64,000 nt of DNA from Eledone cirrhosa (taxonomy: Eukaryota), in contig OZ024740.1 of assembly GCA_964016885.1 (NCBI GenBank), positions 377,022,001 through 377,086,000 of the forward strand. Reading direction: 5' to 3'. A program made the translations under genes and the position numbers. Under the pieces are notes generated by a model. The model worked only from the letters and a program-made list of their open reading frames with translations, had not been told where the DNA came from and did not search any database. This document shows positions 32,201-55,651 of the stretch, one piece after another (position 1 is the first letter of the stretch; every line of letters starts with the position of its first letter).

Positions 32201-32485
32201 GAGTGGGTGTGAAAATATGATGACGTTGTGGATTAATTAAGGAGATGCAGACATGTTCCACCCTGAACAGTTCTACCCGCAACAACAACCGAAATTATTT
32301 TTCAGAAATTCTGCCCCAAATTGTTCCAAATAAGGAGGTTTCCTTCGCAGTACAATGTCGGAAATCTTATTAGCAATATAAGACAAACTGCATGAATATG
32401 TATGATTTAAAAAATGGAAACAAGAAACTTATGGGAGGCAAAATGATAGATGTCAGAAACAAGCACGGGGCAAATATAATAATAT

Positions 32486-32701
32486 TGATTTCTGATTTAG
32501 GCACAAGGCCAACAATTTGGGGGTGAGGGAAAGTCGATTAAATTAACATCTGTACATTACTGGTATTTTATTTTATCAAACCCGTAAGGATGATAGGTAA
32601 AGCTAACTTCGGCTGATTTGAACTCAGAACGTAAAAGGACGTAACTATATACCGCAAAGTATGTTGTCCGACGTTTTACCGATACTGCCAATCCACTGCC
32701 C
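32486..32701 (-). mobile_element. S1-type SINE, full length, abutting (AAT)n
   Basis: Reverse complement: ggcagtggattggcagtatcgg..gagttcaaatc..ggccttgtgcctaaatcagaaatcaatattattat. Confidence 0.85.
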
Positions 32702-32745
<44 letters not shown>

Positions 32746-33021
32746 TAACAATAATAATGATTTCTTTATTAACCACAAGGGTTTACATAAAGTAGACATT
32801 AAGGACAGTGCAGGACAATGCAGGACGGTACAAATGGGCATTTCTGCGTGTAAAAAAAACAAAAACAGAGGATGTAACAAAAATAACAATGAAAATAACA
32901 ATGAAAAATTCCCCAATAGGGGGGATACTTCGGAGGGACATTTGTGGAGAAAGCCCAGTAAAAAGCCACAATGACCCTGACCACCAAGGCAAGTGCCCTC
33001 TCCCAGTTTTCCACCTTTAGT

Positions 33022-36000
33022 TTACAGATATATACTCAGAGTCGGCCCATTCACTCGGGCCATTCTTGCTTCTCTCACCCATCTTTCAACAAAATGCTGG
33101 GAAGAGAGCACTTCCTTCTCTACTCTGATTTTCCTTTTCAAATGAAATTTGAAAAAGTCAATCAGAGCATCACCGAAGAGGTAAGTGCTCGTCTTCAGCC
33201 CTTTCAAACGTGTCCACCATATTATCTCTTTCGCCATGGCCACCAGACAGATAAAAACTGCCTGCCCTTCCCGGCTAAAGGAGGAGGGCGGGGCAATCCT
33301 CACGATAGACTCAGATGATAGCTGGATCCGTCCTAAACGCGACAGCAGGTGTTCGACATAAACCCACAAGTCAGCAATTTTCGGACACTGGACGAGTGCG
33401 TGCAGGACGGTTTCGTCGCCCTGCGCGCATCTCGGACATGCCCGGCTGACGGCACCTCCATGCCTGTAGAGTTTATCCCGAACTGGCAAGGCTCCTCGGT
33501 AGCACTGCCAGGCCAGACATTTCTGGAAGTTGTCCATAGGCCCCGGCCCGAAAGTTCTTCCGAAGAGATTGGCTAGTTGATTTTCGTCGACGCCTAGAGT
33601 TTCCCCAAGTACGTCGTCGCTCTTCCCCTCCACTAATCCTCTATAGAACGCCGAGGTGGAGTTTCCACCGATCACATTGCCCGATTGGTCGAGGGCTGTG
33701 AGCGCCTGAAGACATTCCAGTCTCCAGGCGCTCCCTCTCGGTCTTCGCTTGACCCAGGACTGCAGCTCCGTCAAGGAAACGAGCTGGGGAAAAACGCGTC
33801 TAGCAAACGGCGACCACACCTGATCACCGTCGAGGAAGAGGTGGAGATGTCGTAGCCTGAGCGCGTGCCTGCGCATCATCAGCCACGGCATGCCCAGCCC
33901 TCCACGTAGCGGGTGTTGACAACAGATGGACCGCCTGACCATCGGAGCACGTCCCTTCCACAAAAAGCGAAAGAGCAAACGCTCCAGCGCAGTCAGGCGA
34001 GGCTTAGGACAAGGTACGACGGTTAGGCGGTAGCAGATGACAGACGCGATGTACGCGTTAGCCACCTCCGCTCGACCTTTCAAGGATAGCTTCCTCTCCG
34101 CCCATTTCTGGGTGAGAGAAGCCACCCTGCTCGTCACCTCGTCCCAGTTTTTGTCCGTCTGGAGGTCCGGACCGAACCAGACCCCTAGCAATTTAACCGG
34201 TCCGTCCGTCCAGCGCCCGACGACGCTGTTGGACGGCATGGACCTGCCTCTCCAGGTGCCGAGCTGCAGGCCCACTGACTTTTCCTGGTTGATCATTGCT
34301 CCTGTCACCGCTTCGTATTCTCTTAGTGTAGTGCCGATCGCCTCGATGTGTTTGGCGTTCGACACCACTACGGTGACATCGTCCGCATATGCTGACACGG
34401 ATCTTCCGCATCCTAGTTCGCGCGGGACTCCCCTCAACGTCTCCAGTTTGTGCAGTAATGGCTCGAGCGTCAATACGTACAAGAGGGACGAGAGGGGACA
34501 TCCTTGGCGGACCGAGCGCATGATGTTGAACGGTTCCGACAGGTGACCGTCCACTCTCACCACAGAGCAGATGTCACTGTGCATGGCAGCGATCCAGCCT
34601 CTGAAGACGGGCCCAAAGCCAGCCGCCCTCAGGACTGCCGCTAGGTAACGATGGTCGACCCTATCGAAAGCTTTCGACTGATCTAAATTGATCAAGGACC
34701 CACCCGTGCCAGGTTCCCTAGCTACCCTCTCTACGATGTATCGCATGAGGTGGAGGTTGTCGTGGATGGATCTGTCGGGAATGGCGCATGTCTGCGCCTC
34801 TCCCACCAGACCACCAACGACAAGCGCCAACCTCTTTGCTAGCACCTTGGCCAAAATCTTAAACTCTGTGTTTAGCAGAGTTATGGGCCGGAAATTGTCT
34901 ATGTTATCCCCCTTGTTCGGATCCTTTCTCAGCAGTGCCACCGCTCCTCGGCTCACAGAACTGGGAATTCTCCCGTTCTGTTGCCAGTTGCAGTAGACGT
35001 CCGCCAAGAGGCCTCCGAACAAGTCTGGCATCTGTACGTAAAGTTCATAGGGCAGACCATCCAAACCAGGCGATTTACCCCTTGTGCAGCCAGTCATTGC
35101 CTCCCTTACTTCAGCGGCTGTTATCGGCTTTTCGCAACACTTCGCCTCAGTGGCCGAGAGCCGCGGCAGTCCGTCGAGGTAGACACTAAAGTCCATCCCT
35201 CTACCCGGCCCACCGCTGCCCCCGAACAGCTGAGCGAAGTGTCGCTGAAAAGCTTCACACATTTGCCCGGGATCGAGTAGCATGCGCCCGTCGTGGTCCA
35301 CCAAAGACCGGTTCGTGTCTTTGTTGCCACGACGCGCCTCCGCCACTCGGGCCCATTGAACGGCTTTCGTCCCCTCGTGTCTGAGAGCACGCACCCTTGC
35401 TCTGACAACGCAGCCTTCGTGCTTTGCATTGAAGAATTGGTCAAGGGCCAATTTCGCCGCAAGCACGTCGGTCGCAATGCCTTTGCTAAGCGCCTCGTCT
35501 AATTTTCTAACTAATTCTCCCTCTGCTCTATTTTTCTCTATTGCTAAAGTCTTACTAAACCTAATGGACTCTATTCTAATTGCTCTTTTCAGAGCAAACC
35601 ACCACTTGTTGTTGACGATGGCCCCCGTCAACGCCCGCTTAACTAGTTCGCTAATCCGGTCTCTGTAGGCCTTGCGCGCTGGTAAGGACGCGTTTAGCTT
35701 CCAGTAGCCGGGTCCTCGTCTATGAAGCCTATCTAAGTCAAGCACACAGGTCACGAATTTGTGGTCCGTGTAGCTGACTATCTTGAATTGTGGACAGCCT
35801 ATGCTAGACCTATCTATTTCCCTACAAAATACTCTATCTAGATATGATCTGGATGACCCTATGCGGTTTGTCCAAGTCCACATTGGCACATTCGGGAAAT
35901 CCAATCGGTACCTGTCAGACAGTTCAAAAGGCCTGAGCAGGTTGGTGAGGCTCTTGCACCCTCCACCCCTATCCGCTAATCCCACACAGTCCCAGCGTGC

Positions 36001-36441
36001 ATCTAAGATCCCGTTCCAGTCGCCCACTAACACTAAAGAGCGGGACGTTCCAAGAAAGGTCTCCAGACGCCGGAAGAAATCAGGCCACCCTGCTCCTGTC
36101 GGGGCATAGACGGCCACTAGCCTGAAAGCTTGCCCGTCTCCGCTGGTCACGTCCAGCACCACCAGCTTACCCCCTGGGTCCAGGAAGATGGCCCGTATGG
36201 CGAGATCCAAACCTCTCCGAAAAAGCACAGCAACTCCTCCACCGGATCCAGGACGGCTGGGAGATGCGTACACATCGTAGCCGCCGAAGATCGGTGCGAA
36301 GGCCCGTGCTTCGGAGATTCTGGTCTCGCTGATGGCCACTACATCTATGTTTAGTGACCTGAGGTCGTTGAGCAGGTTTCCCTGCTTCCACGACGACCCC
36401 AAGTCACGCGTATTTATGCTGCCTATTCTGAGTGAGGTCAT
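33022..36441 (-). CDS. Tx1 ORF2p: APE endonuclease - reverse transcriptase - C-terminal CPRC..ET..H..C zinc motif (1139 aa, uninterrupted)
   Basis: SETR, GDWN, YLDR, YTDH, GPGYWKLN, KSPGLDG, LDQSKAFDRV, RQGCPLS, AYADD, CPRCAQGDETVLHALVQC. Confidence 0.93.
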   Translation of the reverse strand: MTSLRIGSINTRDLGSSWKQGNLLNDLRSLNIDVVAISETRISEARAFAPIFGGYDVYASPSRPGSGGGVAVLFRRGLDLAIRAIFLDPGGKLVVLDVTSGDGQAFRLVAVYAPTGAGWPDFFRRLETFLGTSRSLVLVGDWNGILDARWDCVGLADRGGGCKSLTNLLRPFELSDRYRLDFPNVPMWTWTNRIGSSRSYLDRVFCREIDRSSIGCPQFKIVSYTDHKFVTCVLDLDRLHRRGPGYWKLNASLPARKAYRDRISELVKRALTGAIVNNKWWFALKRAIRIESIRFSKTLAIEKNRAEGELVRKLDEALSKGIATDVLAAKLALDQFFNAKHEGCVVRARVRALRHEGTKAVQWARVAEARRGNKDTNRSLVDHDGRMLLDPGQMCEAFQRHFAQLFGGSGGPGRGMDFSVYLDGLPRLSATEAKCCEKPITAAEVREAMTGCTRGKSPGLDGLPYELYVQMPDLFGGLLADVYCNWQQNGRIPSSVSRGAVALLRKDPNKGDNIDNFRPITLLNTEFKILAKVLAKRLALVVGGLVGEAQTCAIPDRSIHDNLHLMRYIVERVAREPGTGGSLINLDQSKAFDRVDHRYLAAVLRAAGFGPVFRGWIAAMHSDICSVVRVDGHLSEPFNIMRSVRQGCPLSSLLYVLTLEPLLHKLETLRGVPRELGCGRSVSAYADDVTVVVSNAKHIEAIGTTLREYEAVTGAMINQEKSVGLQLGTWRGRSMPSNSVVGRWTDGPVKLLGVWFGPDLQTDKNWDEVTSRVASLTQKWAERKLSLKGRAEVANAYIASVICYRLTVVPCPKPRLTALERLLFRFLWKGRAPMVRRSICCQHPLRGGLGMPWLMMRRHALRLRHLHLFLDGDQVWSPFARRVFPQLVSLTELQSWVKRRPRGSAWRLECLQALTALDQSGNVIGGNSTSAFYRGLVEGKSDDVLGETLGVDENQLANLFGRTFGPGPMDNFQKCLAWQCYRGALPVRDKLYRHGGAVSRACPRCAQGDETVLHALVQCPKIADLWVYVEHLLSRLGRIQLSSESIVRIAPPSSFSREGQAVFICLVAMAKEIIWWTRLKGLKTSTYLFGDALIDFFKFHLKRKIRVEKEVLSSQHFVERWVREARMARVNGPTLSIYL

Positions 36442-36480
36442 GTTGAAATGGAGTGGAAAAGATGGGAAAGACCACTTACC

Positions 36481-38365
36481 TTACTTCTCGTAGAGGAAGG
36501 ATGGTTTCTCCATCCTTTTGACTGCTTCTGGCCTCCTCCGGAAGGATGTCCTTATAAATCCTCCTGGAGAGTGCTTGTCGGAAGTCTCCGACGTCTTTGG
36601 GGAATTTTTGTTTTAGTGTCGTGTACGTTTTCTGTGTGATGCGAGTGATTTGTATGTGTGGAGGTGGTGTGAACTTTTGGATTGTTGTGTAGTCTTTTTC
36701 TGTGATGCTGGTGTTGTGTTGGATTTAGTGTAATAATTGGTTGTTGTTCAAATTTATTGCTGTGTAGTGTGTATCGTTATGGTTGTTTTGTTTTGTTGTG
36801 GGTTTGTTTCTGTTTCGCTTTTTGGTGACTTTTGTGGTGTTGCTGATGGTGGTGTTGGGGTTAATGATGGTGATGATGTTGGTGTTTGTGGTGATGGGGT
36901 CGGCGATGCTGGTGTGGATGGTGGCATAGCTGTCCTAACGTTTTTGTTTTTGGAGGGGGAAGGAAGAGAATTTTTTCTTTTTTGGTTTCTTTTTCTTTTT
37001 TTCTTTTTTACTGATACCGTTTCCAACTCCTCGTCGTCACAATCTGCCTCCAGTTGCGATAGGTCGGGGAGTGGAAAATCCTCCACAGGCGTTGGTTTTG
37101 GTTGAGGCGTAGTGGATGGTGTAGGTGCTGGTGCTAGTTCTGGCGCGTTGGGTGGTGGTGGTGCTGGTTTTGCTACTGTTGCTGGAGTTGTTGCTGTTAC
37201 AATTGCTTCTGTTGTTGCTGCTACAGTTGTTGCTGCCATTTCTGCTGGTGGTGGTGTTGATGGTTGAGTCACTGGGGTTGGTAAGAGAGGTGGCCTCAAA
37301 CTTTTAGCCTGAGGGCAGAAAGACCTTAGGTGGGTTCCTTCACCACAAATGACTCACCTAGGCCTTCTGCCCTCGACGATTACGGTGAGGTGGCTGCCGA
37401 AAGTGACGTCTATTACCTCTCGGATCTCCTCAATGCTTTTTGGTTCGCTTGGATCAGAAGCTCTATCCCAGATCCGGACCAGTTCTCCTGCTTGTCTTTC
37501 GCTATTTCGATTATCTTGGTGTTGGCCTCGATGCCGGCGAGGACGGCAGCCATTAGCCAGGGAATTTCGATGGCCGGTGGAACGTGGGTCACCCTGATCT
37601 TCACGAGTCTCCTGCCACAATAGCTTGGGACGAGTGTGAAGTCGTCACTTCTTAATGGGGCCATGGAGTGTTCTCTGGCCTCCTGTGGTGTTCCAAAGAA
37701 TACGTCCACGGTTCCATATTTCTGCCCACGTCTGATGTGGGGGTTTTTTGCCCACAAATGTCCCAAAGCTTTTTGGATTTGGGACTCGGATGCCCGTTCC
37801 ACTCGGCGCGATTTTATGTTAATCGTCCGATAAGAGACGGTGTATAGGCGCCGATGCTCTATTTTATTAGGTGGGGGGAGGGCTGAGCCTGTACCCATCT
37901 TTCTTTACCATTCTTTTGGCTTCTTCTAATTCCTCCTGAGTTACCTGGATTGCTTCGCACTTTTTTGCTACTCTGGCAAAAGACGGTGGTTTTCTTATTC
38001 TCATTGTTGTTGTTGCTGTTGTTGTTATCGTTATTTTTGTTATTGTTAATTTTAGTTTCAGTTGTGGTGGTGGTGGCGTCAGTGGTGTTCGGTGTGGAAG
38101 AGTTCATTTTGGGTGAATTCATTTCGATGTCACGTGATAATTTATTTATTTATTTTGTTTCTGTTGTCGCTGTGGTGGTGGGGGGGGGGGGGGCTTCAAC
38201 AACTGCAGTCATTGGTAATGGCGGGAAATGAATGTCTGCATGAGACAAATTTAAAATATTGCTACTGCTTATATTTTTAGTGTTGGCAAACGTAGTAATA
38301 TTTACAATGGTGGTGTCGGTGTGAGGTGTTAGTTTGTGAGGAAGGTGTGACTCTGAGTCGTCCAT
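36481..38365 (-). pseudogene. Tx1 copy B ORF1p (gag-like): low-complexity N-terminus, CCHC knuckle, Pro/Thr-rich region, basic NLS-like tract; frameshifted
   Basis: ATG in aaaatcATGG context at 38365. Pieces 38150-38377, 37859-38122, 37413-37898, 37354-37620 and 36754-37299. TGA at 37354-37356 replaces the first knuckle Cys. Confidence 0.8.
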
Positions 38366-38561
38366 GATTTTTTTCAAAGAAAAATGTTTGTTTGATAATT
38401 ATAAAAGTTTAAATTTTGGGCTCAAGGCCCCAATCTTTTTGAGCGTCCTTTTCAGAAAACAATGTATGTGAACTTATATACAGTTAACAATAAAAATTAA
38501 CAACTGAAAATAACAAACATTTGCGGAGCTCACGATAATACGATTTACTACGTAGATCGCC

Positions 38562-38609
<48 letters not shown>

Positions 38610-39085
38610 TTCATTTATTAGCCACAAGGGCCGACATGTAGGGGACAATACAAAGACAGGGACAGTGGGGGTTTACAATAAGGTCGAGTAAAAGTGCACA
38701 ATGGCAAGACTAATTTAACAATGAAGATGTAAGAATATAAAATAAACTATGCATAAATATAACAAAATAAATTCCCCGATAGGGGGTGGACGAACCTGGG
38801 GTGACTCGGGTACCCCACCAATCCTGAACCACCCTGCGCTTCTAGGGCACCCAGGGAGAGCACCCCTCTCCTCAAGTTAGCTAGCCTATAGGGGAAGGTG
38901 GCGGTATCACTAGACAAGGGAGGGGCTAGCAAAAGATATAAATAGATTGACATATGACCTGGCCACCGGCCAAACCTCAACAACTTTGGCACTGCTGGCT
39001 CCCCCTTTCCTCACCAACAATATAAAAAGCCCCAGCACCACCACCGACATAGCCAACAACAATAACAGGCAACTTCAGCAAAAAG
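38610..39085 (-). mobile_element. Short element carrying a Tx1 (family C-like) 3' UTR and tail
   Basis: 38610-38890 aligns with the copy C 3' UTR (gaggagaggggtgc..gttcaggattggtg..cggcccttgtggctaataaatgaaattatt). The upstream ~200 bp does not resemble the ORF2 C-terminus. Confidence 0.7.
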
Positions 39086-39239
39086 TATATTATATTATTG
39101 TAATGCACTGGGTGATTGCTGGCCTTGTGCCTGGAGTGGAGACAATTATTATTATTAATAATTTCATTCTTAAGCCACGCAATGCTCACATTAAGGAACC
39201 ACTCATGATAATAACAATTTAAAAAAACAACAAAAAAGA

Positions 39240-42200
39240 AAACCCCGTGACCAAGAAATACCGGGATGGCGGCCGGCGGGGAATAGCCGTGTCTCTAGGG
39301 GAGAACGACCCCACTAGTCTTGGTTGACACTCATTCTAGAAGTGGTAACACGAAATGATTACCCCTTGGCGGATAAGGATAAAACGCGACAAAATAAAGT
39401 AAATGTCTAATGATAAAATCTCATACCGGATCGGCCGTCACCCGGGTAAAAAAGGGCCGCGTCTCTCAGAGAGGAACCAGACTGGGGTCGAAAAATCAGC
39501 TAATGGTTCAAACCTTCCCATCACTTCGGAGCTGGAACCTCCCATAACCGGAATACTCCTACTGTTGGCCCTCCATTCTCACCACCTAGAAATCCAAAGA
39601 AAAAGAGAGAAAAATAGTCAAGGGAAGATAATAAAGAAGTCCTTGAGACTTTCTACACTGCCATGTACTACCCATCAAATACACCGAATACAGAACAGAC
39701 ATATATCAACTGGAAAAAGAAACATCCCGAAAACAGAGGCTATATTGACAGTAACAAACTAGCCAATATACGAAGAAATATTGTAAAAAAAAAGTTACTA
39801 ACTGATATAGAAATTGATCAGATCAAGCTATTAGCACAAAGTCAACGAAGGGAAAATGAAACATGTGTCAGTGAAAACAAGGTAAATTGTAACACTTCGA
39901 ATCCCAGGGTTGGGGCGGAATCACTGGCAACAGAACAAATTAAAGAAAGGATCGAAAAAGTGGAGGGAGTGCAGGCTCAAGATGAAACTCCAAATGAAAA
40001 TAATGAGATCGTAAATGATAAAGAAATGAATGAGAATGAACTTGCCAACTTGAAGGATGAAATTATGATCGAATGGATGAAAATGAAAGAATCTGACATG
40101 GGGCAACGAGACACCCTCCCTAAGATCCAGAACTCCAAACAGAACCAAAAGATAATACACAAGACTAACATAATTCTCAAAAACATTATCATCACAAACA
40201 AACTAAACATTACTGATTTAAATCATCTCTATTATGCATCGGCTAAAGTCACCACTCACTTATGTTGAGTGAAGATGAAAAAACAAAGGAATTCCCACAA
40301 GAAATCTACTTGGCAAGAGAACATCAATCGCCAAATAAACCTTCTCCGATCTGACATAGAAATTTTAACAAACTATAAAGTAGGTGAACATGTTAAACAA
40401 ACTAAACTTAGAAAATTGAAAAGAAAGTATAGTATAAAATCAACAAGTGACATAGACATGCTGATAGAAATAATCAAGCAAAAAGTGTCGGCCAAAGCTG
40501 CTCGTATAAGGCGCTTTGAAAAACGATCTAGATTCTATAAGGACAATAATATGTTCAAAAACAACCAAAGAAACTTCTACAGAAAAATTGGTAAGTCAAC
40601 AATAACTGCTAAATCAATACCACCCAAGGAGGAAGTGCAAGAATTCTGGGAAAAGATCTGGGCCGAAGAAAAAGTTCATAACATGCATGCCCCATGGATA
40701 GACAGACAAATGAAAGATACAGCTCACCTTGAGTAACAAATATGGGAACACATAACAGTTGAACAGTTGCGCTTGGCTCTAAGAAAAACCAGCAAATGGA
40801 AATCCCCAGGAAAAGACAAAATACAAAATTTTGGGATAAATGCCTTCACAGAGTCTCATCAGCTGTTAGCCCAACTTTACAATGTAATAGTTAAGGAGCC
40901 AGAAAAGATACCATCATGGCTAGTTAACGGCATTACATTCCTGCTTCCGAAGAATGATGAGACAAACAATCCCCAAAATTACAGACCGATAACTTGCTTG
41001 ACCACAATGTATAAAATTTTAACATCAGTCCTAACTGAATACACATATGACCACCTGATAAGAAATGACCTATTTCCCATTGAGCAGAAAGAGTGTAAAC
41101 GAGGCTCGTATGGCTGTAAGGATCAGCTTTTGGTTAACAAAATGATACTGGAAGACTGTCGTAATAGACACAAAAATCTATCAATTGCTTGGATAGATTA
41201 TAAAAAAGCATTCGATAGTTTGCCACACAGTTGGATTGAAAAATGTTTAGAGATTTTCAAAATATCCCCCGTTGTCAGGAGGTTTTTGTCATTCAGTATG
41301 AAGACATGGAAAACGACACTCCTTTTGAATAGTGAAACAAAATCACTGGAAGCTGGAGAAGTTAATATTAATTGTGGAATTTTTCAGGGTGACTCTTTAT
41401 CACCGCTTTTATTCTGCATCGCACTTATACCATTAAGTAAAATGCTCAATGAAACAAAACATGGATATAGAGTCTATGACAAAACCATTAATCACTTGTT
41501 CTACATGGATGACCTGAAACTATTTGCAAAAAATGATTAACAATTGCAAGGGCTATTATCCACTGTGGAGCAGTTCAGTGATGACATTAAAATGGAGTTT
41601 GGACTAGATAAATGCGCCAAAGCAACGTTCACCAGAGGAAAGCTGCTGAAGAGTTCAGACATTAATCTTGATCGGGGGAACGTGATAAGGGAACTTGATC
41701 AAGAAAAAACTTACAAATATCTAGGTGTTTGTGAAGGAGACGGAATCAAGCACTCGACAATGAGGGAAAGGATAAAGAAGGAATGTTACCGCAGAGTAAG
41801 AGCAATCTTAAGAACGGAATTGAATGCAAGGAATAGGATCGATGCCATAAACACGCTTGCCATACCAGTAGTAACCTACAGTTACAATGTCATCAACTGG
41901 TCAAGCACAGAGATCCGTAGGCTCGATACAAAAATTCGAAAATTCTTAACCATGCACAGAATGCATCACCCTAAGGCAGATATAGATAGAATATATCTCC
42001 CTAGGAAAGAAGGAGGACGTGGGTTAATCCAGTTAGACATTGCGTTGAAAACTGCAACAATTGGATTATCTACATATCTAAGGGAATCACATGATTGGAT
42101 GATCAAACTCGTTTTGAAACACGAAAGCATCAAAAGATCATATTCCATTACAAAAGATGCACAAAGATACAGTAATGGACTACAAATTTCAGAAGTCCCA

Positions 42201-43202
42201 TTTACTGCTGAAATGGAAAACACAGAAAAAGCAAAGCAGGTAAAAGTAACTGCAAAGAAAGAACTGCTACAGAAACTGGCTAAGAAATGGCAAGAAAAGC
42301 ATCTGTATGGAAAATACCCAGAACGAGCTAACAATCCTGATGTTGACAAAACTTTAACCCATCAGTGGTTGGCATCCTCTGGACTGAAATCGGAGACTGA
42401 AGGACTGATTATATCAGCACAAGATCAGTGTCTGCCAACAAAAAATTACCAAGCCAAAATAATAAAAAAATGGGTGCAGCCCATTATGCCGTGTATGCAA
42501 AAAACAACCAGAGACCATTGACCATATAATTTCAATGTGCAGTCCTATAGCTCCAACCGAATACATAAACAGGCATGACAGAGCTGCACAATACATACAT
42601 TGGATAATGTGTAAGCATTTTGACCTGCCCCATCAAAAGAATTGGTGGGAGCATCAACCACCTCCCATACTTGAAAAAGATCACATCTCAATCTTGTGGA
42701 ACTTTAGCATCCAAACAGACCAAAAAATAGATGCAAATAGACCTGATATAATATTGAAGGACTTTAAAAAGAGGGTATGCCTGCTAATTGATATGTCCGT
42801 TCCAATAGACAAGAATGTATCTTTAAAAACATTTGAAAAATTGAGCAAGTATAAGGACCTGGAGATAGAAATTGGAAAAATGTGGAAATTGAGAACTAAA
42901 ACAATACCAGTGGTTGTAGGCGTGGGTGCTCTGGGAATGATACCTAAGGGGCCTAATGATTACTTATCGCAAATCCCAGGAAACCCGCGTATAGGAGAAA
43001 TACAAAAGATAGTACTAATGGGAACTGCCCATATGCTAAGGAAGATTCTGTCAATATAAGTACATCATAAGTCTAAACACAAAAGATGCATGTGTGAGTA
43101 TGTATGTTCTTTCTTGAACATGGCGGACCTTGTTGTCTCTTGAGGTCACTAGTTGTGACTTGGTGATAACTCGTATGAACATAAAGCAAGATAAATGCAA
43201 CT

Positions 43203-43203: not shown

Positions 43204-43252
<49 letters not shown>

Positions 43253-43253
<1 letters not shown>

Positions 43254-43744: not shown

Positions 43745-43772
43745 TAATAACAATAATAATGATAATAATAAT

Positions 43773-43890: not shown

Positions 43891-46800
43891 CAGCGTGATA
43901 GTGCCACACAAAAATCACCGGGAGTGATGAAATCACCGGAGGTGATGAAATCCCCGATGGTTATGTAACCATACATTCATCAATCCTCGATAAGAGTGTT
44001 TAAATGTCGAACCTAAACAGTTCGAATAACGGTGAAGTGGAGACTGGAATGTCATGTGACAGACTCTCACCTAGCAGGTGCTTCCTGGCTCAGCAGCAGG
44101 GACCTGGCTGTCAACCAAATACTGCTGGTGTCGGAGGAAGAAGAAGAAGGAAAGGGACCAGAACCAACTGGACGAAAGAATTGAATAGAACTGTTATGCA
44201 ATGTTACCTGAAGAGTAACCCCAAGGAGAAAGGCTATAGGAAACAGATGCATAACATCTGGAACGAGATCGGTCTATTTAAATTAGATGAACAAAAATTG
44301 GCCGGGCAGACTCGGGTAATAAGAACTAATGGGTGGATAAGCGAGCTGGAACTGGAGGAACTGAGCAGAGAGATTAGGTTGGAAATGGAGAGTGGAGTAT
44401 GCCAGGCAAACGAGCCAGTGGGAAATGAAGGTGAAGAGGTTGAGAGAACGGAGGAACGATCCGAAGCAGACAATGCTCTGAATGCTGAAATAAATAATAC
44501 CTGGAAGAAAGATACGGCCATTGAGGAGATGAATGCTGACGGGTTAGGACAAGATTTGGATGATATCCTAAACTTAGTGGTAGATGAATTGAACAATCAT
44601 AGTGGGAAACCTATGAACCTAAGATTTGTAGACAGGAAAAAGTTAAAAGAAAGAACAGCTAAGGTAAACAAAGTCATCCCATACCTTGAGACGAGGAGCC
44701 TTCACCAGTGCAACAATATCCTCAAAGAAACAGCAAATGCGGTGAGGAAATTACTTGCTATAAAAGCGAGAGGAAACAACAAACAAGAAAGATGAGAGCC
44801 TTGGTGGAAGAAACGATTGAATGGTCAAATGAGGGAAATGAGAATTGACATTGGAAAGCTTGAGTCCCTACTGAATGGGACACTAAAAAACATAGACACT
44901 AAAAATAGACTGTAAATAAAGTACAAAACTAGGAGGAAAAAGCTAAATATTATCATAGAGGAACTGAAGCAACGCATTGTAGCAAAGAGTGCAAAAATTA
45001 GGCGATACGAGAGCAGAACCGCATGTTTAACAACAACCAGAAGATGCTGTTTGGACAGCTTGAAGGGAAAGAAAGAGGCAACGACTTGATCCCTGAGGCG
45101 GAACAAACTAAAACATTCTGGAGAGGAATATGGGAGCAGGATGTTAAACATAATGACCAGGCAGTGTGGATTGACACAGTGCAGAAGGAGATTAGTGAAC
45201 AGGCACACCAACAAACTGATTTGAGTATCACAGTTGAAACTCTTAAGGGGCAGGCCAAAAAACTAACCAACTGGAAATCACCAGGCCCAGATGGTGTGCA
45301 GAGGTATTGGATTAAAAATATAACATCCCTCCACCCGAAATTGACAACCATGTTCAATGACTGCTTGATGTCAGGTGAGGTACCAGAGTGATTGACAAAA
45401 GGTACCACAGTTCTGGTAATGAAAGACCGAATCAAGGGTAATGATGTTACCAACTATAGACCTATCACATGTCTGTCCGTAATGTGGAAACTGTTGACAA
45501 GCATTGTGTCTGAGGAAATCTATCATCACCTCCACACAAACAACTTGTTACCGGACGACAGAAAGGATGCCGAAAGAAGTCCCGTGGTACAAAGGACAAG
45601 TTACTTATTGATAAGGTGGTAATGAGGAATTGCAAGAGGAGACACACTGGTCTTGCCATGGGATGGATAGACTACAAAAAGGCATTTGACATGGTGCCTC
45701 ATTCTTGGATCACCAAAAGCCTAGAGATCTTCAAGGTGGCAGATAACATCAGACAGTTGTTGGGCAAAAGTATGAAGTCCAGAGTTAACATCAGCTGGAG
45801 AATCCTTGGGAGGCGTGAAGATCAATAGAGGTATCTTCCAGGGAGATAGTCTGTCCCCTCTGTTGTTTGTCCTTGCCCTGATGACCCTGACCATTATACT
45901 GCAAAAGGTGAGAGCAGTATACAAGTTGGGAAAGGGAGAGCTTACCATCAATCACCTCCTCTTCATGGACGATCTTAAGCTCTTCGGGAAGAGTGAGAAG
46001 GAGTTGGATGTGCTTGTTGACACTGTCCGTATTTTCAGCAATGATATATGTATGCAATTTGGTATTAGTAAGTGTGGAGTCCTTGTGATGAAGCGGGGTA
46101 TATTGAGCAGAAGCAACGGAATCCAGGTACCAACAGGTGAGATGATAAAGGAAATTGACACTCAAGAAGGATACAAGTATTTGGGTGTTCTGGAGGCTAA
46201 TGACATCAAGAACAAAAAAATGAAGGAATTGATAAGATCTGAATACATTCGGAGAGTAAGGAGCGTATTAAAGTCACATCTGAACAGTAGGAATGCCATA
46301 AGTGCAGTAAATTCTCGAGCTGTGTCTATTATTAGGTACAGTGCGGGAATTCTGAGATGGGATGTTGCTGAACAAAAATAAATGGATAGGAAGACTAGGA
46401 AGCTATTGACTATCTACAACATGTTCCACAAGAGGAGTGATGTCGATAGACTCTAATTAAGGAGATCTGAAGGTGGAAGAGGTCTTATCAGCAAAGAGGA
46501 CTGTGTTCAGATGGAGAAAAACAACCTACACAAATACGTGACTGATAGTAAGGAGCGAATGCTCAGAATTGTACTGAAGGAGAGGACAATAGACCAGGGG
46601 ATGTCCAAGGCGGAAATAACAAGAAGGAGAAAGAGCAGCCTTCATGAAAAATCCCTTCATAGTACCTTCTTTGAGAAAACTGAATTCAGAGATCCACAGA
46701 CATGGAACTGGTTGAAAAGAGGAGACCTTAAAAAGGCTACAGAAGGAATATTAATGGCTGCACAATAGCAGGCCTTCAAACGAAGTGGTTGAAACACCAT

Positions 46801-47464
46801 ATTTACAAGGACGAGGCTAGCCCACTGTGCAGGATCTGTGGAGAGAGAGAGGAGACTGTGGCTCATATTGTATCCGAGTGTAAACACCTAGCCCAGACTC
46901 ACTATAAAGGCTGGAGACATGATGTGATGGGCAGGGTGATCCATTGGCATCTATGCAAAGTAAACAATTTACCACATTCTGAGAAGTGGTATGAGCATAA
47001 GCCAGAGTTGGTGATAGAAAAAGATCAGGTGAAGGTGCTGTGGGATTTTAGGATACAGACGGACAAGAAACTGGAACACAATAGACCTGACCTGGTGGTT
47101 TTGGACAAGGAAAAAAGATCGTGCTTGATTGTGGATGTAGCCTGCCCATTCGACACGAGAGTGCAAGAGAAGGAGAAGGAGGAAATTAACCGATACTAGG
47201 ACTTAAGTGGGCGGTAAAAAGGATTTGGAACTGCCATTGTCCCGATTGTCATAGGCGCACTAGGTACTATCTCAAAGAGTTTCCAAGGATGGTTAAAAAA
47301 AATTAGTCCCGCCCCGCTTTTTGGAACACTTCAAAAGGCATGCTTGCTGGGAACAGCAAGAACCATCCGACACGTTCTGAATATCTGAGGCTGCAGGTAG
47401 TGGCTTGATACGCATTTCAACAAACTTTCCAGTTAAATAACATCAGTAACTGAGACTCAAAGAA
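43891..47464 (+). mobile_element. R4/Dong family 2, full length, defective, flanked by AAT repeats
   Basis: ORF from ATG 44004 to ~47388 with stops: [77 protein letters not shown]. (AAT)n 47465-47552. Confidence 0.92.
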
Positions 47465-47465
47465 C

Positions 47466-47549
<84 letters not shown>

Positions 47550-47620
47550 AATTGTTTCTACTTTAGGCACAAGGCCAGCAATTTCCCCAGTGCATTACTG
47601 GTACTTTTAATAATAATAAT

Positions 47621-48630
47621 AGATCTGAAGGTGGAAGAGGTCTTATCAGCATAGAGACTGTGTTCAGATGGAGAAAAACAACCTGCACAAGTATGTGACT
47701 GTCAGTAGGGAGCCAATGCTCAAAATTGTACTGAAGGAGAAGACAATAGACCAGGGGATATCCAAGGAGGAAATAACAACAATGAGGAAGAGCAACCTTC
47801 ATGAAATATCCCTTCATAGTACCTTCTTTAAGAAAACGGAATATAAAGATCACAGACATGGAACTGGTTAAAAAGAGATCTTAAAAATAACTACTGAAGG
47901 AATGCTAATGGCTGCGCAAGAGCAGGCCCTCAGAACGAAGTGGGTGAAACACCATATTGACAAGCAGGAGGCTAATTTACTGTGTAGGATCTGTGGAGAG
48001 AGAGAGGAGACTGTGGCTCACATTGTATCCGAGTGTAAACACCTAGCCCAGACTCACTATATAGGCTGGAGACATGATATGATAGTCAGGGTGATCCACT
48101 AGCATTTATACAAAGTAAACAATTTACCACATTCTGAGAAGTGGTATGAGTATAAGCCAGAGTCGTGATAGAAACCGATCAGGTGAAGGTGCTATGGTAT
48201 TTTAGGATACAGACGGACAAAAAATTAGAACACAATAGGCCTCACCTGGTGGTTATGGACAAGGAAAAAAGATCGTGCCTGATTGCAGATGTAGCCTGCC
48301 CATTTGACACGAGAGTGCAAGAAAGGGAGAGGTAGAAAATTAACCGATACCAGTATTTAAAGAGGGAGGTAAAAAGGATTTGGAACTGCCATGAAATCAA
48401 AGTCGTCCCGATTGTCATAAGCGCACTAGGTACTATTTCAAAGAGTTTCCAAGGATGGTTAAAGAAGATTAGTCCAGCCCCGCTTTTTGGAACACTTCAA
48501 AAGGCATGCTTGCTGGGAACAGCAAGAACCCTCCGATACGTCCTGAATATCTGAGGCTGCAGGTAGCGGCTTGATATTCATTTCAACAAACTTTCCAGTT
48601 AAATAACATCAATGACTGAGACTCAAAGAA
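47621..48630 (+). mobile_element. R4/Dong family 2, 5'-truncated copy between AAT repeats
   Basis: Similar to 46463-47464, including the CCHC motif, RLE and 3' UTR; preceded by an S1 SINE tail (47552-47608, -). Confidence 0.9.
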
Positions 48631-48660
48631 CAATAATAATATAATAATAATAATAATAAT

Positions 48661-51600
48661 GATTTCATTTATTGGCCACAAGGGCCGACATATAGGGGAC
48701 AATACAAAAGACTGGGACAGTGGGGTTTTACAGAAAAATCGAGTAAACAATATGAATAAACAAAGTAACAATAACAAAGTAACAATAAAGTAACAAGAAA
48801 ATTACAAGAAAACATTCCCCAATAGGGGGGATGACCACCTAGGGTTCGCTCAGGTACCTCACCAATCCTGAACGACCCGACGCTTCGAGAGAACCCTGGA
48901 AGGGCACCCCTCTCCTCTTCAAATTTACCTACCTACAGTCGCATGACCAGAGTAGGACCACTCACACGGGCCATTCTCGCCACATTCACCCACCTTTCAG
49001 CAAATGTACTGGGGGGCAGTACTTCTCTCTCCACCCTCACCTTCCTTTCCAAGTGAAACATGAAAAAGTTGATGAGGGATTGGCCGAAGAGAAAAGTGTC
49101 TGTCTTCAGTCCTTTCAACCTCGTCCACCATACAACCTCTTTCGCTACTGCCACCAGACAGAGGAAAATTGCCTGCCCTTCCTGGTCAAAAGAAGGCAGC
49201 GGGTCGATCTTCACTATGGACTCGGCCGATAGCCGGATCCGTTCTACACGCGACATCAGCTGTTCAACATAACTCCACAAGTCAGTAATGGACGAGTGCG
49301 TGCAGAACGGTTTCGTCGCTCTGCGCGCATCTCGGGCAGGTCCGTCTGACAGCACTTCCGTGCCTGTAGAGTTATCTCGAACCGGTAGTGCCTCCCGGTA
49401 GCACTGCCAAGAGAGGGATTTTTGGAAATTATCCATCGTCCCCGGCTCGAAAGTCCTTCGGTACAGACTGGTTAGTTCGACTTCGTTGACTCCCAGAGCC
49501 TCTCCGAGTGCGTCGTCGCACTTGCCCACCACTAATCCTCTATAGAACTCGAGAGTGGAAGTTCCACTGACCGCATTGCCCGCCTGGTAGAGGGCAGTGA
49601 GTGCCTGGCAACATTCCAGATGCCAGTCACCCAGTCTCGGTCTCTTCTTGACCCAGGACTGCAACTCAGTCAAAGAAACGAGCTGCGGAAAGGCCCGTCT
49701 GACAAACGGCGACCACACCTGTTCACCGTTTAGGCAGAATATCTGGAGATGCCGCAGCCTCAGCGCGTGCCTGCGCATCATTAGCCACGGCATGCCCACC
49801 CCTCCACGTAGAGGGTGCTGGCAGCAGATGGACCGCCTCACCAGCGGAACCTGACCCCTCCACAAGAATTTGAAGAGGAGCCGCTCCAAGATGGCGAGAC
49901 GCGAACGGGGGCAAGGGACGACAGTCAGACGGTAGTAGATGACGGACGCGATGTACGCGTTCGCCACCTCCGCCCGACCTTTCAGTGATAGCTTCATCCC
50001 AGCCCATTTCTGGGTGAGACTGACTACCCTGCCCGTCACCTCGTCCCAATTCTTATCCACCTGGAGGTCTGGCCCGAACCAAACCCCTAGCAACTTTACC
50101 GGTCCGTCCGTCTAGCGCCTAACGACGCTGTTGGACGGCATGGACTTGCCTCTCCAGGTGCCGAGTTGCAAGCCCACTGACTTTTCCGGGTTAAGTTTTG
50201 CTCCCGTCAACCTTTCATATTCCTCCAATAAGTTGCCGACCACCTCGATTTCTGAGGTGTCCGACACCATCACGGTGATGTCGTCCGCATAAGCCGACAT
50301 AGCCTTTCCGCGTCCCGGTTCGAGCGGGATGCCCTGCAACAGCTCCAGCTTCCGCAGTAAAGGCTCGAGAGTCAATACGTACAGAACGGAGGAGAGAGGG
50401 CACCCTTGACGGACCGATTGGGAGACCTGAAACGGTTCCGAGAGATGGTCATTAATTTTGACCATCGCGCAGGTGCCGCTGTGCATTGCAGCGATTCAGC
50501 TTCTGAAGACGGGGCCGAAGCCAGCCGCCTTGAGGATAGCCTCCAGGTACCGATGGTCGACCCTATCGAATGCTTTCGATTGATCTAAATTGATCAGAGC
50601 CCCACCGAAGCCAGGTTTACACTCGACCCTCTCTATGATGTATCGCATTATGTGGAGGTTGTCGTGTATGGACCTGGTTGGGAATGCGCAAGTTTGCGCC
50701 TCCCCAACCAAATCCCCGACGACAAGCGCCAACCTCTTCGCTAATATCCTGGCCAAAATCTAATGTGTCCCTCTTGTTCTCGTCTTTCCTTATCAGCGTC
50801 ACTACGCCCCGGCTCACAGAACTGGGAATACTCCCGTTTTGCTGCCAGTTGCAGTAGAGCGCTTCGAGGAGATTGGAGAACAAGTCTGGCATATTTACGT
50901 AAAGCTCGTAGGGCAGACCATCCAAACCGGGTGACTTGTGCCTCATGCAGCCTACAAGGGCTTCCCTGTAAGCCTTACGTGCTGGAAATGACATGTTTAG
51001 CTTCCAGTAACCAGGTCCTAATCTATGCGTCTTATCTAGGTCGACCATACAGATCACAAACTTGTGATCTGAATAGGCGACCGTTTCAAAACGTGGACAG
51101 CTTACACTATTTCTGTCTATTTTCCTAATGAATATCCTGTCTATATACGATTTAGATGACCCTATGCGGTTAGCCCAGGGCCACACTGGCGCATTAGGGA
51201 AATCTAGTCGGTACCTTTCAGACAGTTGGAATTGGCTGATCAGGTTCTTGAGGCTTTTACACCCCCGCTCCTATCGGATACTCCCACACTGTCCCAGCGT
51301 GCGTCTACGATGCCGTTCCAGTCCCCCGCTAACAGTAAAGGGCGAGACGTACCCAGAAAGGCTTCCAGGCGTCTAAAGAAGTCCGGCCGTCCTGCCCCAG
51401 TAGGAGCATAGACGGCCACCAGTCTAAAGGCACCACCTTCATTATTGTTCACGTCCATTACCACCAACTTCCCGTCCGGGTCCCGGAAGATCGACCTTAC
51501 CTCGAGATCCAGACCTGTCCTAAACAGCACTGCCACCCCGCCCCCCATTCCCGGCTGGCTAACAGATGCAAAGATCTGATAGTCGTCGAAAATGGGGGCT

Positions 51601-53769
51601 AGTGCGCGCGTGTCGGAAATCCTGGTCTCGCTGACTGCAATTACATCCATTTCTATAGACCTGAGGTCGTTGAGCAGGTGACCCTCCTTCCAGGACGATC
51701 CCAGGCCGCGAACATTTAAACATCCTACTCTTAATACGGCCATGTTGGCAGGTTAAACAGAGAGAGAGGAAGGTTTACTTACCTTCCGGGCTCTTGTGAA
51801 GGTCGGGTTGTTCGACCCCCATAGTTAGTGGGGTTTCTTTTGGGAACCCCTTTAAAAGACTTGAAGTTGGTTTTACGTTCGGGGTTCCCACGTCCCGAGG
51901 AAAGCTGTCTCGTATTTCTTTGAATATGTAGAGCGACATTCGCACCAGAACCAAATCTTCCGGCACGCGAAATGTGCTCGATTTAAACATTTCCCTCTCT
52001 TTTTGTATATTTTCGCTTCGTGCTACGAGGGCCATCAGTTCCTTGTTGGCCCTCCTGACGAGCACGAAGTTTTGTATGTTTTGTTGGTGTGATTTTGTTT
52101 GTTTGCGTGGCTGTGGTGTTGTTTCGGTTGTATCTGTGTTTGTTGTGAGTGCAATGTCTGTGGTTTCAGATGTTTGTGTGTATATTTGTTCTTGCGTCTG
52201 TTTCGGTTGTTTTCGTTTGGGGGATTCTGGTGATGGTGATGGTGGTGTTGATGTTGGTGTTATTGGAGAGATGTTTGCGTGGGTGGTGTCTGCGTTTTTT
52301 ATTGTGGGTGCTTTTGTGCTTTGTTGGGGTTTTTTTTCTTTTTGTGTTTCCTTTTTTGTATTTTGGGGGATTTGGGATTTCCCTCATCTTCACTACTGGT
52401 AGATGAAGGGTTTGTGTCTGTAAGTGTGTTTGTATGTATGTTTAAGGTTTTATTGGTGTGTGTATTTTTTTTGGGGGGGGGGGTGACAGCTTTCCTCGTT
52501 TCCCCCCTGGGTGGTCAATGTTGGTGGTGTTTTTTCTATTGGTGTTGTTGTTGGTGGTTGACAGTCCCATTCTGAAGTCGGATATGGTCTGGGATTGTCT
52601 TCACATTATCGGGCCTGATCTGGAGAAGGATCTCCAGGTCAACCTCGGACCAGTCTTCTCTGGCCGTTATGGTCACTTCTATAGGGACTGTATCCGTCCC
52701 CTCCACAATCACACATCCCAGAAGCCACCACTTGTCAAGTCCTGGTGGGATTCTGGGAATGCGGAGACGAGCCGTTCTTTTTCCCATGTGGGAGGGGTAC
52801 ATTATGACCTTGCTGATTTTGCAAGGAGTCATGGCGTGTTTCATCGCGAGGGCTTCTGACTTGAACAACACCGAAATGGTGCCGTACTGTCTGCTCCTCT
52901 CTATGTACTGGGTGTCTTCTCTGATGCACCTCAGCGCGACTTCGATATCTTCTTGTGGGATTAACGCTGCCCTTTTGGTTTGTGCTTAGATGCATCTATA
53001 ATGCACCGTTTTGCGCTCCACTGCCTCAATAGCTTCTACCGGGACAGTTAAGTTGGCCCAAGTTTGCTCTTGCTTGATGAGCTTCCATGCCTGGGCCAAC
53101 TTTTCATCTTTGTTTGAGAGGTCCATGTTGAAGCATGGCCTCTTTTTTGCTGCTGCCGCAGCGAAAGTGGTCTTGTTTTCGTTGGGGGTGTTGTTGACGT
53201 TGTTCTTGTTGGTGTTGTTGTTAGCACTGTCGCTGTTATCATTGTTGTCTTTGCTGCCACCGTTGTTCTCGGTGCAGTTGGTATTGTTGCTGTTGGTGTT
53301 GTCGCTATTTGTTTTCATGTTAGTGGTGTTGATATTGTTGTTGTATTTGTTATTTTTTTTTTTGTTATCTGTATTTTCGTTGTCGCTGTTACTGTCATTT
53401 TTTTTCAAATTAGAGTTCTTATTGGTATCATTGGTGTCTTTGTTTACCTTGTTTGTGGTGGTGTTTGTGTTATCAATGTGTGTTAATTTCGCTGTAGCGC
53501 TCCTCTCAACTTCTACGTCGTTGTCGCACGACAGCCGACATATCGCTGGGGGCGTGACTCAGCCATGATTTTTTTCTTCGTAAATTTTTTAATATGTAAA
53601 AAAGGTTCAAATATTTGGGCCAAAAGTTCAAATATTATACTTTCCCCTTCACGGGGCAAAGTCTAAGGGCTTATATCCCTTACACAACAAGAAATATTTA
53701 ACATCAAATAATTTAAACAGGCAAATAAAGCGACTTACTGTGAGCGAGCAAAATACGTCCGCTTAGACC
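48661..53769 (-). mobile_element. L1/Tx1-clade LINE, second family (copy C), both ends present, internally deleted, flanked by AAT repeats
   Basis: ORF1 ATG at 53566 to stop at 51775 (Asn-rich). ORF2 51743-48933 with LNVRGL, SETR, YSDH, GPGYWKLN, LDQSKAFDRV, AYADD; deletions near 50965 and 50762. 3' end ggcccttgtggccaataaatgaaatcattatt. Confidence 0.92.
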
Positions 53770-53793
53770 AATAATAATAATAATAATAATAAT

Positions 53794-53897
53794 GTTTTAT
53801 TGACCACACGGGCCGACATATAGGGAACAATACAAAAATAGGGATAGTGGTGCCTACAAAAGAAATCGAGTAAAAAAAGTATAACATTAAATTTCAT
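53794..53897 (-). mobile_element. Tx1 family C-like 3' tail fragment
   Basis: Reverse complement ends gtcggcccgtgtggtcaataaaacattattatt. Confidence 0.75.
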
Positions 53898-53901
53898 AAT
53901 A

Positions 53902-55309
53902 ATGAAATTCCTCACTGACGAGAGACAACGTGAAACAGTGCTACATACTTTACAAGGATTCACAAAAGAAATAGGCATGAAATTTATACTAGGCAAAGGC
54001 GCTAAGTCAACTTTGAAGCAAAGAAAACTGGTGAACAACACTAATATCACAGTAGATAAAGAAACTGAGATAAGAGAATTCGGTTAAACACAGACATACA
54101 AATATTTAGTAATCAACGAACTAGACAGTGTTCATTACACACAGATCAAAGAAAAGATTAAAAATGAATACTATAGACGGATTAGATTACTACTTAAAAC
54201 AGAAATAAATGCAAAGAACAATGTGATTAGCATCAATACTCTAGCGATCCCAATAATAAGATAGTTTTAATATTCTGAACCGGACACTAAAAGAACTAAC
54301 AGGAATAGACAGAAAAACAAGAAAATTAATGACTGCATTTAGAATACACCATTCAAAACTGATGTAGAAAGATTATAACTGCCACACAAGAGGAAGAGGT
54401 ATATTGCAAGTAGAAAACTATTATAACTACTGTAAAACTACAAAAATATCTCATGAAAAACAAAGGAATATTAATACAAATACCCACGAAATATGAACAA
54501 AATAAAAAATTGTTTTCTGTCTTCAAGAAGCCAACAAATTCGAAACAGAAGTTGGATTGACAGGTAATTGTGAGGAAAATGTAAACAAAGATGAAACAAA
54601 GATGAAACAACAGAAATTGTAGAAAACATAAAATCTAAATTGAAAATAATCCTTGAGAAGTCTACCCAAAAAATGATGGCAGGAAAATCCCTTACATGGC
54701 CAATGACCGAAAAAGCTGATTAGCAAAACTCGCAAAACTGGCTACAAAGCACTGGACTAAAAGCCGAGACTGAAGGAATTCTAATCAAAGCATAAGATTA
54801 AAGCATCTCTATCAGAAACCACCAAAAGTACATAATTGTTTCTACTTTAGGCACAAGGCCAGCAATTACCCAGTGCATTACTGGTACTTTATTTTATCGA
54901 CCCCGTAAGGATGAAAGGCAAAGTGAACCTCGGCGGGATTTGAACTCAGATCGTAAAGGGACGTAACTATGCTGGAAAGTACATAATGAAAAAGAACACA
55001 ATAAATAATTGCAGAATATGTGGAAGTGGGATGAAACAATTTGCCACGTTATCTATGGCTGCCTAGTCTTAGCCAAAAAGGAATATAACCACAGATGTGA
55101 TAGAGTTAGGACTTACAAAGAGTGGAAGTTATACAGACATTAGGAAATACCAACAGAAAATTATGGTACTGACACACACCAAAAGAGGTGTCAGAGAATG
55201 ACAAAACAACCATGCTCTGGGATATGCCAACTCACACAGACAGGGTGATCAAAGTCAAACGACCGGGTATTATAGTCAAAGACCACAAAGAAAAAATGTC
55301 TATTTTACC
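53902..55309 (+). mobile_element. Old R4/Dong-like LINE 3' fragment
   Basis: EIGMKF..KGAK, INTLAIP, GLKAETEG, CRICG and MLWDMPTHTDRVIKVKRPGIIV; decayed and interrupted by a SINE. Confidence 0.75.
54837..54975 (-). mobile_element. 5'-truncated S1 SINE with 12-bp target-site duplication aaagtacataat
   Basis: TSD at 54825-54836 and 54976-54987. Confidence 0.88.
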
Positions 55310-55327
55310 ATTATTATGCATCGACGG

Positions 55328-55500
55328 CACTATCGGTAGAGAGTCAGACGCCATGCTTTTCAGCATAGAGCTACGTCCCTTTACAGACTGAGTTCAAATC
55401 CTGCCGAGGTTAACTTTGCCTTTCATCCTTACAGGGTCGATAATATAAAGTACCAGTAATGTACTGAGTAATTGCTAGCCTTGTGCCAAAAGAAGAAACA
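55328..55500 (+). mobile_element. S1 SINE with 18-bp target-site duplication attattatgcatcgacgg
   Basis: TSD at ~55310-55327 and 55501-55518; it begins with ATT repeats. Confidence 0.88.
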
Positions 55501-55651
55501 ATTATTATGCATCGACGGTTATCCCCCCTTGCTTCTGCTGGACAACGCTCAACTGTGGCTTTCAAAATGTTTGTTTAGAAACATACCGTATATCGTTAGA
55601 TATACGAAATTCACATACATATGTATATAAAGCTATGTCGAAGATACATTC

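Follow-up and report, generated by a model that had tools for sequence, protein, structure and literature searches.

In Eledone cirrhosa (assembly GCA_964016885.1; 3.0 Gb in 1796 contigs), two unrelated lineages of long interspersed nuclear elements (LINEs), one Dong-like and one Tx1-like, prefer (AAT)n repeats as insertion sites and lie in them in opposite directions. The window analysed here is the whole 64,000-nucleotide stretch at positions 377022001–377086000 of contig OZ024740.1 (hereafter C1). Within the window, positions 32484–55505 hold 14 retroelement pieces: five Dong-like elements on the plus strand, four Tx1-like elements on the minus strand, and five short interspersed nuclear elements (SINEs), four of them on minus and one on plus. 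We consider it probable that this array is a chain of independent insertions, in which the two LINE lineages entered (AAT)n in opposite directions, likely by nicking opposite strands and renewing the tract. Both lineages prefer this target, their opposite polarity is fixed, their copies cluster, and SINE target duplications start at ATTAT with a pyrimidine before it. An initial annotation of the window had described the stacked insertions; its observation is confirmed, and its interpretation is supported with the amendments given below. The array is one of many, an ordinary long example that is not special to its locus. The names Tx1-A to Tx1-D and Dong-1 to Dong-3 were coined in this analysis.

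Target preference, polarity and clustering

An exact 24-mer from the Tx1-A head occurs 2240 times genome-wide, and ATTATT stands directly before it, in phase, in 2144 cases (96%). The background frequency of ATTATT is 0.09% per stranded position (40 evenly spaced 10-kb stretches, 400 kb). With an ATT-free query, 27 of the 30 best Tx1-A heads have an ATT run directly 5′ (scored by eye, own copy included), and the first 30 heads on C1 follow 3–24 ATT units each. Tx1-B heads follow ATT in 25/25 (own copy included). The Dong-like families have corresponding AAT flanks. Of the first 30 Dong-2 3′ ends on C1, 14 belong to copies whose start fell within the sampled locus, the other 16 extending beyond its edge. 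These 14 copies are all truncated, and 12 of them start in an AAT run, as the initial annotation had observed for 5′-truncated copies in the array. Full Dong heads follow AAT or AAT plus AAG runs in 32/33 cases, drawn from non-random loci found in the Dong and Tx1 searches. The 5′ flanks of the two lineages are thus not random.

The same flanks could arise if AAT were a mere tail made during reverse transcription. A control LINE that also carries an ATT tail, and that we take to belong to the CR1 clade, bears on this point. This element (motifs PQGSVLGP and YADD) has 8217 exact 3′ ends genome-wide, yet 0/22 of its truncated 5′ junctions lie at two or more ATT units (30 sampled; eight ran to the edge). 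The tail alone therefore does not explain the AAT flanks.

Polarity and clustering were scored in the first 62 Mb of C1 with 55 Tx1-A heads, 100 Tx1-A 3′ ends, and 96 Dong-2 3′ ends (100 listed each). A Tx1-A end is found no more than 20 kb from 57 of the 96 Dong-2 ends, against a random mean of 6.2 and a maximum of 15 in 500 draws. Orientation, which the initial annotation allowed might prove random, is opposite in 55/57 of these neighbouring Dong-2/Tx1-A pairs, and neighbours of the same family share a strand in 29/30 and 32/33 cases. There are 36 clusters of at least three marks, spanning up to 26 kb; 22 of them mix Dong and Tx1, and 21 of these 22 obey the polarity rule throughout. If this stretch is typical, the genome would hold more than 1000 clusters. 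Three to five Tx1 3′ ends also follow one another on one strand at ∼6-kb spacing in three places on C1 (55.42–55.45, 56.17–56.18, and 57.09–57.10 Mb), and these runs are likely pure head-to-tail Tx1 chains.

The tracts themselves are mostly bordered by elements. Beyond the ATT run before a Tx1-A head, another retroelement follows in ∼21/30 cases, in keeping with the self-renewing target put forward in the initial annotation. This count was made by eye from 23 automatic matches, since the automatic labels included ∼3 false and one missed call among the 30 heads and failed on many Dong tails. The neighbours across the run are Tx1, SINE, or CR1 tails in sense and Dong in antisense. Similarly, ∼9/14 (AAT)≥5 tracts in the evenly spaced 400-kb sample lie beside a retroelement (by eye), a warning that AAT microsatellites in this genome are mostly element tails.

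A different origin of the clusters would be near-random insertion, with arrays as survivors because selection spares copies lying within AAT tracts or other elements, or as chains built by recombination between tracts. Recombination or template switching does occur in arrays, as seen at an AAT-free junction at 38889/90 of the window and in the ORF1/ORF2 mosaics described below. We nevertheless judge this origin very unlikely: enrichment in exact phase reaches ∼1000-fold, SINE and CR1-like control copies persist well at non-repeat sites, and selection would not fix a clade-specific polarity.

Layout of the array

The pieces were called by combining sequence reading, a repeat list, self-alignment, protein mapping, and a print-out of the junctions. 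They are, by window position:

32484–32702, minus: SINE (subfamily b), head adjoining the first AAT run
32703–32758, plus: (AAT)∼19 run, the Tx1-A tail
32759–38561, minus: Tx1-A, 5803 bp, both ends present; ORF1 broken; 3′ CUUGU hairpin, AATAAA, and ATT tail
33022–36441, minus: open ORF2 of Tx1-A, 1139 amino acids (aa); apurinic/apyrimidinic-type endonuclease (APE), reverse transcriptase (RT), C-terminal zinc knuckle
38562–38609, plus: (AAT)16 run, the Tx1-A 5′ flank and Tx1-C tail
38610–38889, minus: Tx1-C 3′ fragment, head to head with Dong-1
38890–43204, plus: Dong-1, 5′-truncated by ∼740 nt; RT, CCHC, PD..D nuclease
39100–39156, plus: SINE 3′ end and ATT run, belonging to the Dong-1 family 5′ untranslated region (UTR)
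43205–43252, plus: (AAT)16 run
43253–43745, plus: Dong-2b 3′ fragment, 493 bp
43746–43775, plus: imperfect (AAT)10 run
43776–43880, minus: SINE 3′ fragment, 105 bp
43881–43889, plus: (AAT)3
43890–47465, plus: Dong-2, 5′ UTR truncated, many stops; ∼41% aa identity to Dong-1
47466–47552, plus: (AAT)29 run
47553–47608, minus: SINE 3′ fragment, 56 bp
47609–47620, plus: (AAT)4
47621–48631, plus: Dong-2 3′ fragment, 1011 bp
48632–48660, plus: (AAT)10 run
48661–53769, minus: Tx1-B, both ends present; internal deletion of ∼570 bp, stops
53770–53793, plus: (AAT)8 run
53794–53897, minus: Tx1-D 3′ fragment, ∼100 bp, then a short AATAAT at 53898
53906–∼55323, plus: Dong-3, old, degraded, interrupted by a SINE
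54829–54979, minus: SINE inside Dong-3; 12-bp duplication starting ATTAT on the SINE strand
∼55324–55505, plus: SINE; 18-bp duplication starting ATTAT

This layout agrees largely with the initial annotation. The count of about 14 stacked insertions holds, as does the open ORF2 frame, and all nine named AAT runs are present, some starting one position away. The Tx1 copies are on minus (4/4) and the SINEs mostly so (4/5). All five Dong copies are on plus as proposed, with the amendment that no (TAA)n tail can be seen on Dong-3. Insertion on AAT holds for ten junctions, formed by runs of 2 to 29 units; it fails at 38889/90 and for the last two SINEs, which sit at ATTAT motifs. The three Dong-2 3′ ends of the array are 89–91% alike. 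The array lies at 377 Mb on a 443-Mb contig, and its target is (AAT)n, not a telomeric repeat.

That the 23-kb chain is an artefact of assembly is the least probable of the readings we considered. The array is spanned by no read or contig, and none of its junctions is crossed among the matches listed. However, its pieces are separate copies that differ from one another, and 36 clusters in 62 Mb show the same kind of arrangement. The unique parts at both ends also match Logan contigs of run X4, perhaps from the same animal, without substitutions. Logan runs X1, X7, X8, and X9 gave only repeat fragments against the array.

Outside the array, the window contains an older second Tx1-A copy at about 9112–13977 (plus), which is slightly 5′-truncated and has a decayed tail, as well as an old Tx1-like piece at 29984–30385 (minus). 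A 368-aa frame at 5478–6584 (minus) with weak C2H2-type zinc-finger matches lies beside a same-strand RT fragment (6563–7456, minus). There is another RT fragment at 15384–16213 (plus) and a pair of near-identical 294-bp direct copies at 17084–17679.

The SINE, its 3′ hairpin and a proposed mechanism

The SINE is very common: there are 25,112 occurrences of a 31-mer from its head, some of them in a satellite made up of SINE heads. This tandem satellite of ∼45-bp units covers more than 60 kb at 10.32–10.38 Mb of C1 (sampled loci L279–L285) and recurs at 1.98 Mb (L262–L264). The SINE head gave no tRNA call. We scored 73 SINE 3′ ends from the window and from the loci of the SINE search, the control, and the background. 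Duplications of at least 10 bp accompany 39 of them, and 34 of these 39 begin at ATTAT after the SINE end. A wider set, drawn from all sampled genome loci and the window, gave 136 ends and 59 anchored duplications. We dropped 27 that were pure repeat or preceded by ATT; the 32 kept are 10–20 bp long, with a mode of 17. The base before ATTAT is C or T in 30/32, against 51% in the background (p = 2e-7). The SINE RNA has A at this −1 position and cannot template C or T, so the bias points to the enzyme and likely reflects the nuclease. SINE sites lie mostly outside microsatellites, at the short motif Y^ATTAT. The proposal that a restriction-like endonuclease (RLE) element, an APE element, and a SINE share one AAT target therefore stands for the two LINE lineages; the SINE has the Tx1 nick signature in common but is not microsatellite-specific.

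The SINE and the Tx1-like elements also have a 23–28-nt 3′ end in common, which can form a hairpin with a CUUGU loop. Its stems are family-specific (AACC/GGUU, GGCC/GGCC, and (U)GGC/GCC(A)). Of the 52 distinct CTTGT contexts close to a tail, 34 have a stem of at least three pairs, against 75/919 contexts elsewhere. In ten aligned ends both sides change in three of the four pairs, a score reached by 0/500 shuffles. This covariation offers support, not proof, for a shared structure, and on these sequence grounds a Tx1-like element is likely the driver of the SINE.

These results can be joined in a model of target-primed reverse transcription. Since Tx1 RNA ends in (AUU)n, its primer must be the AAT strand; since Dong RNA ends in (UAA)n, its primer is the ATT strand. 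The Tx1-like APE would therefore nick the AAT strand and the Dong-like RLE the ATT strand. The Tx1 cut would fall at about 5′-ATAAT↓R-3′ on the AAT strand, the cut end would pair with the RNA tail, and a second cut would follow 10–20 bp from the first. Such a site would recur every three bases in an (AAT)n tract. Tail and duplication together would leave a tract on both sides of the new copy, so that a site once hit would gain targets. CR1-like and SINE tails may supply the seed tracts. Tx1 proteins likely copy the SINE, and would do so by recognising the CUUGU-loop hairpin common to both.

A competing explanation is that the endonucleases nick AT-rich DNA loosely and that pairing of the RNA tail with the nicked strand sets strand, phase, and clustering. 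In full-length copies, a co-transcribed 5′ ATT would pair at the second junction. Consistent with this, full-length Tx1-A heads are 96% in exact phase and truncated copies are looser; SART1 uses RNA–target pairing (PMC7265360); and L1 is less strict when nicking in vitro than when integrating (PMC1950540). We hold this explanation to be unlikely. The CR1-like LINE gave no such junctions despite an (ATT)n RNA tail of its own, and the C/T at −1 is untemplated. On the CR1 control and the −1 bias we favour a real nuclease preference, to which RNA pairing may add.

Several observations weigh against the model of opposite-strand insertion and tract renewal. Only 5/12 truncated Tx1-A copies begin directly at two or more ATT units (30 ends sampled; 17 past the locus edge, one with a deletion at the edge, 12 scored). 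Two of the 12 join (TTC)n, one lies in an ACT repeat, and the others have short ATTAT-like or unresolved junctions. One of the 12 (L193) has the same orientation as the Dong element next to it. In the window, the 5′ end of the Tx1-A copy at about 9112 lacks ATT, and the head-to-head junction of Tx1-C and Dong-1 (38889/38890) is free of AAT. No empty sites were seen for LINE insertions. The pyrimidine bias was measured on SINEs, and for it to hold for Tx1 as well, Tx1 must be the driver of the SINE. The hairpin has just 3–4 pairs, its structure was derived from the same ten related sequences, and minimum free energy folds of longer SINE ends often favour another helix. Twenty longer regions yielded five further Tx1-A ends within ATT runs, three of them at a single locus. 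The model is supported by one truncated Tx1-A from these regions (L242), which has a 16-bp duplication starting ATTATT, of the same kind as the SINE duplications.

Proteins, shared modules and known systems

The 1139-aa Tx1-A ORF2 matches three Pfam domains (PF03372, PF00078, and PF13966). All the endonuclease motifs are present in alignment (INTR, SET, YAP, GDWN, YLD, and TDH), in roles that we presume to be catalytic. With a library of solved structures in which L1 and R2 are the only full LINE proteins, the best relative of the RT is L1 ORF2p (E = 4e-49, against 3e-21 for R2). A profile search of ORF2 likewise ranks L1 ORF2p (4e-154) above R2 (2e-55); the endonuclease domain alone had no phmmer match in PDB but was matched by the profile search. 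Tx1-B ORF2 is 62–74% identical to that of Tx1-A in aa. We place these elements provisionally in the L1 group, the Tx1 label being drawn from architecture and target rather than from a tree with named references. ORF1 in this group, including the Tx1 clade, bears a CCHC knuckle; in the window copy of Tx1-A it is broken, reads xVICGEGTHLRSFC with a stop at the first C, and has no Pfam match.

The window Tx1-A ORF2 is 98–100% identical in DNA to young subfamily copies with an open ORF2, which indicates a young family. Its broken ORF1 is 90–98% like sampled relatives, with the boundary at about 36450–36520, and from this mismatch the copy may be a chimera. Elsewhere, Tx1-A ORF2 is joined at the ORF1–ORF2 boundary to at least three different ORF1/5′ regions (L236, L237, L241, L244, L246, L247, L252, L254, and L255).

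All Dong copies in the window are broken; compared with an open copy, the Dong-1 ORF has a frameshift and three stops. That open copy, elsewhere in the genome, is closest to R2 proteins, with an alignment spanning the CCHC knuckle and the PD..D nuclease. The architecture is a single ORF with RT, CCHC knuckle, and PD..D RLE, and the Dong-1 and Dong-2 proteins are 41% identical. The Dong-like label thus rests on architecture and target, no named reference for a tree being present among the 120 matches listed. To our knowledge, elements of the R4 clade lack C2H2 fingers at the N-terminus. Such fingers are present in R2 (PMC7650587); none occurs in 76 long homologues among those 120 matches or in the N-terminal frames of Dong-1 and Dong-2. 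Relatives of Tx1 and Dong in metagenome contigs are 23–47% alike and have a five-unit AAT/ATT run in 1/80 loci, which is uninformative on targets in other animals.

Both long Dong copies in the window are 5′-truncated, the families extending ∼700–1350 bp further, and positions 39160 and 43892 were accordingly rejected as Dong 5′ ends. The SINE end and ATT run at 39100–39156 recur in 28/30 of the best Dong-1 copies and so belong to the family 5′ UTR, not to an independent insertion. By this comparison the segment is apparently a fossil array piece fixed in the element. The same UTR (window 39100–39200) also has a possible antisense Tx1-like end. Dong-1 and Dong-2 have a 5′ module of 700–760 nt in common at ∼80% identity (L039, L065, L081, and L016; window 38890–38917), and some Dong-2 copies carry the whole Dong-1 module ahead of their own 5′ UTR, which suggests that array neighbours exchange 5′ modules. 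(AAG)n/(TTC)n runs often lie beside Dong heads and some truncated Tx1 copies (L196, L198, L032, L043, and L054); they may reflect slippage on the AAG-rich Dong 5′ end or a second, weaker target.

Insertion of Dong on TAA microsatellites has been reported (PMC3812793, PMC3774820). Dong, DongAg, and DongBg of the R4 clade likewise have a single ORF with RT, CCHC, and PD..D, and they sit and end in (TAA)n in the same sense. The two families here differ at the 5′ end: though only 41% alike in protein, they share a 5′ module. The 5′ end of Bombyx Dong self-cleaves through an HDV-like ribozyme (PMC3774820); at ten Tx1 and Dong head loci, none of the four weak Rfam matches was to a ribozyme family, although a fitting model is perhaps missing from Rfam. 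PMC3812793 places Dong among APE elements, in conflict with other papers and with the RLE seen here.

Microsatellite-specific Tx1 elements include Kibi on (TC)n, Koshi on (TTC)n, and crocodilian families on (TTCC)n/(TTTC)n (PMC4494074). In that paper a family counts as target-specific when one sequence type makes up >20% of its flanks; the figures here are 96% for Tx1-A and 25/25 for Tx1-B. Kibi and Koshi are likewise L1-group APE LINEs on a microsatellite, which here is (ATT)n and shared with an RLE family. TRAS1 and SART1 are both APE elements of one clade and insert in telomeric repeats. In Bombyx they occupy one short repeat in opposite directions (PMC7265360). The orientation is alike, but here an APE and an RLE lineage meet on dispersed microsatellites that element tails renew. 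R1 and R2 both lie in 28S rDNA. Keno (Tx1, APE) and Utopia (RLE) share a U2 snRNA gene target (PMC4640811). They converge likewise, but on the same site and 3′ flank, whereas here opposite strands are used and mixed chains run for tens of kb. SINEU and Tx1-Mar (PMC4494074) resemble our pair in that a SINE has the target signature and 3′ structure of an L1-group LINE, as does a stringent L1/SINE pair of maize with a 3′ hairpin (PMC3747384). Here only the 23–28-nt end is in common, and the likely driver is more specific than the SINE.

Outside Repbase, subscription papers (e.g. Kojima and Fujiwara 2004), and supplements, the literature searched yielded neither an ATT-targeting Tx1 nor mixed Dong/Tx1 arrays. 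The system is likely a new combination of known behaviours, with a Tx1 target that is likely new. With somewhat less assurance, we lean towards a broader account in which an undescribed (ATT)n-specific Tx1 would drive a very common SINE through stringent hairpin recognition and have a target in common with Dong, which would use the opposite strand. These elements and ATT-tailed CR1 seeds would account for most long AAT tracts and for ∼1000 polarised mixed arrays whose neighbours swap 5′ modules and ORF1s.

In such arrays two endonucleases of unrelated origin would naturally work on opposite strands of a single trinucleotide repeat, so that the parts of nuclease and RNA–DNA pairing in targeting become testable on one substrate. 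Tests of this kind could use the window's Tx1 ORF2, which is open and very young, and the open Dong ORFs elsewhere. Dong-R4 and L1-Tx1 elements are abundant and recently active in octopus (PMC13282606, PMC8967140, PMC9115989, PMC10294476), where transposon hotspots have been reported without a target analysis in the accessible text (PMC13282606). The arrays described here offer a candidate mechanism for such hotspots in octopus genomes and point to a possible LINE partner of a highly abundant cephalopod SINE.

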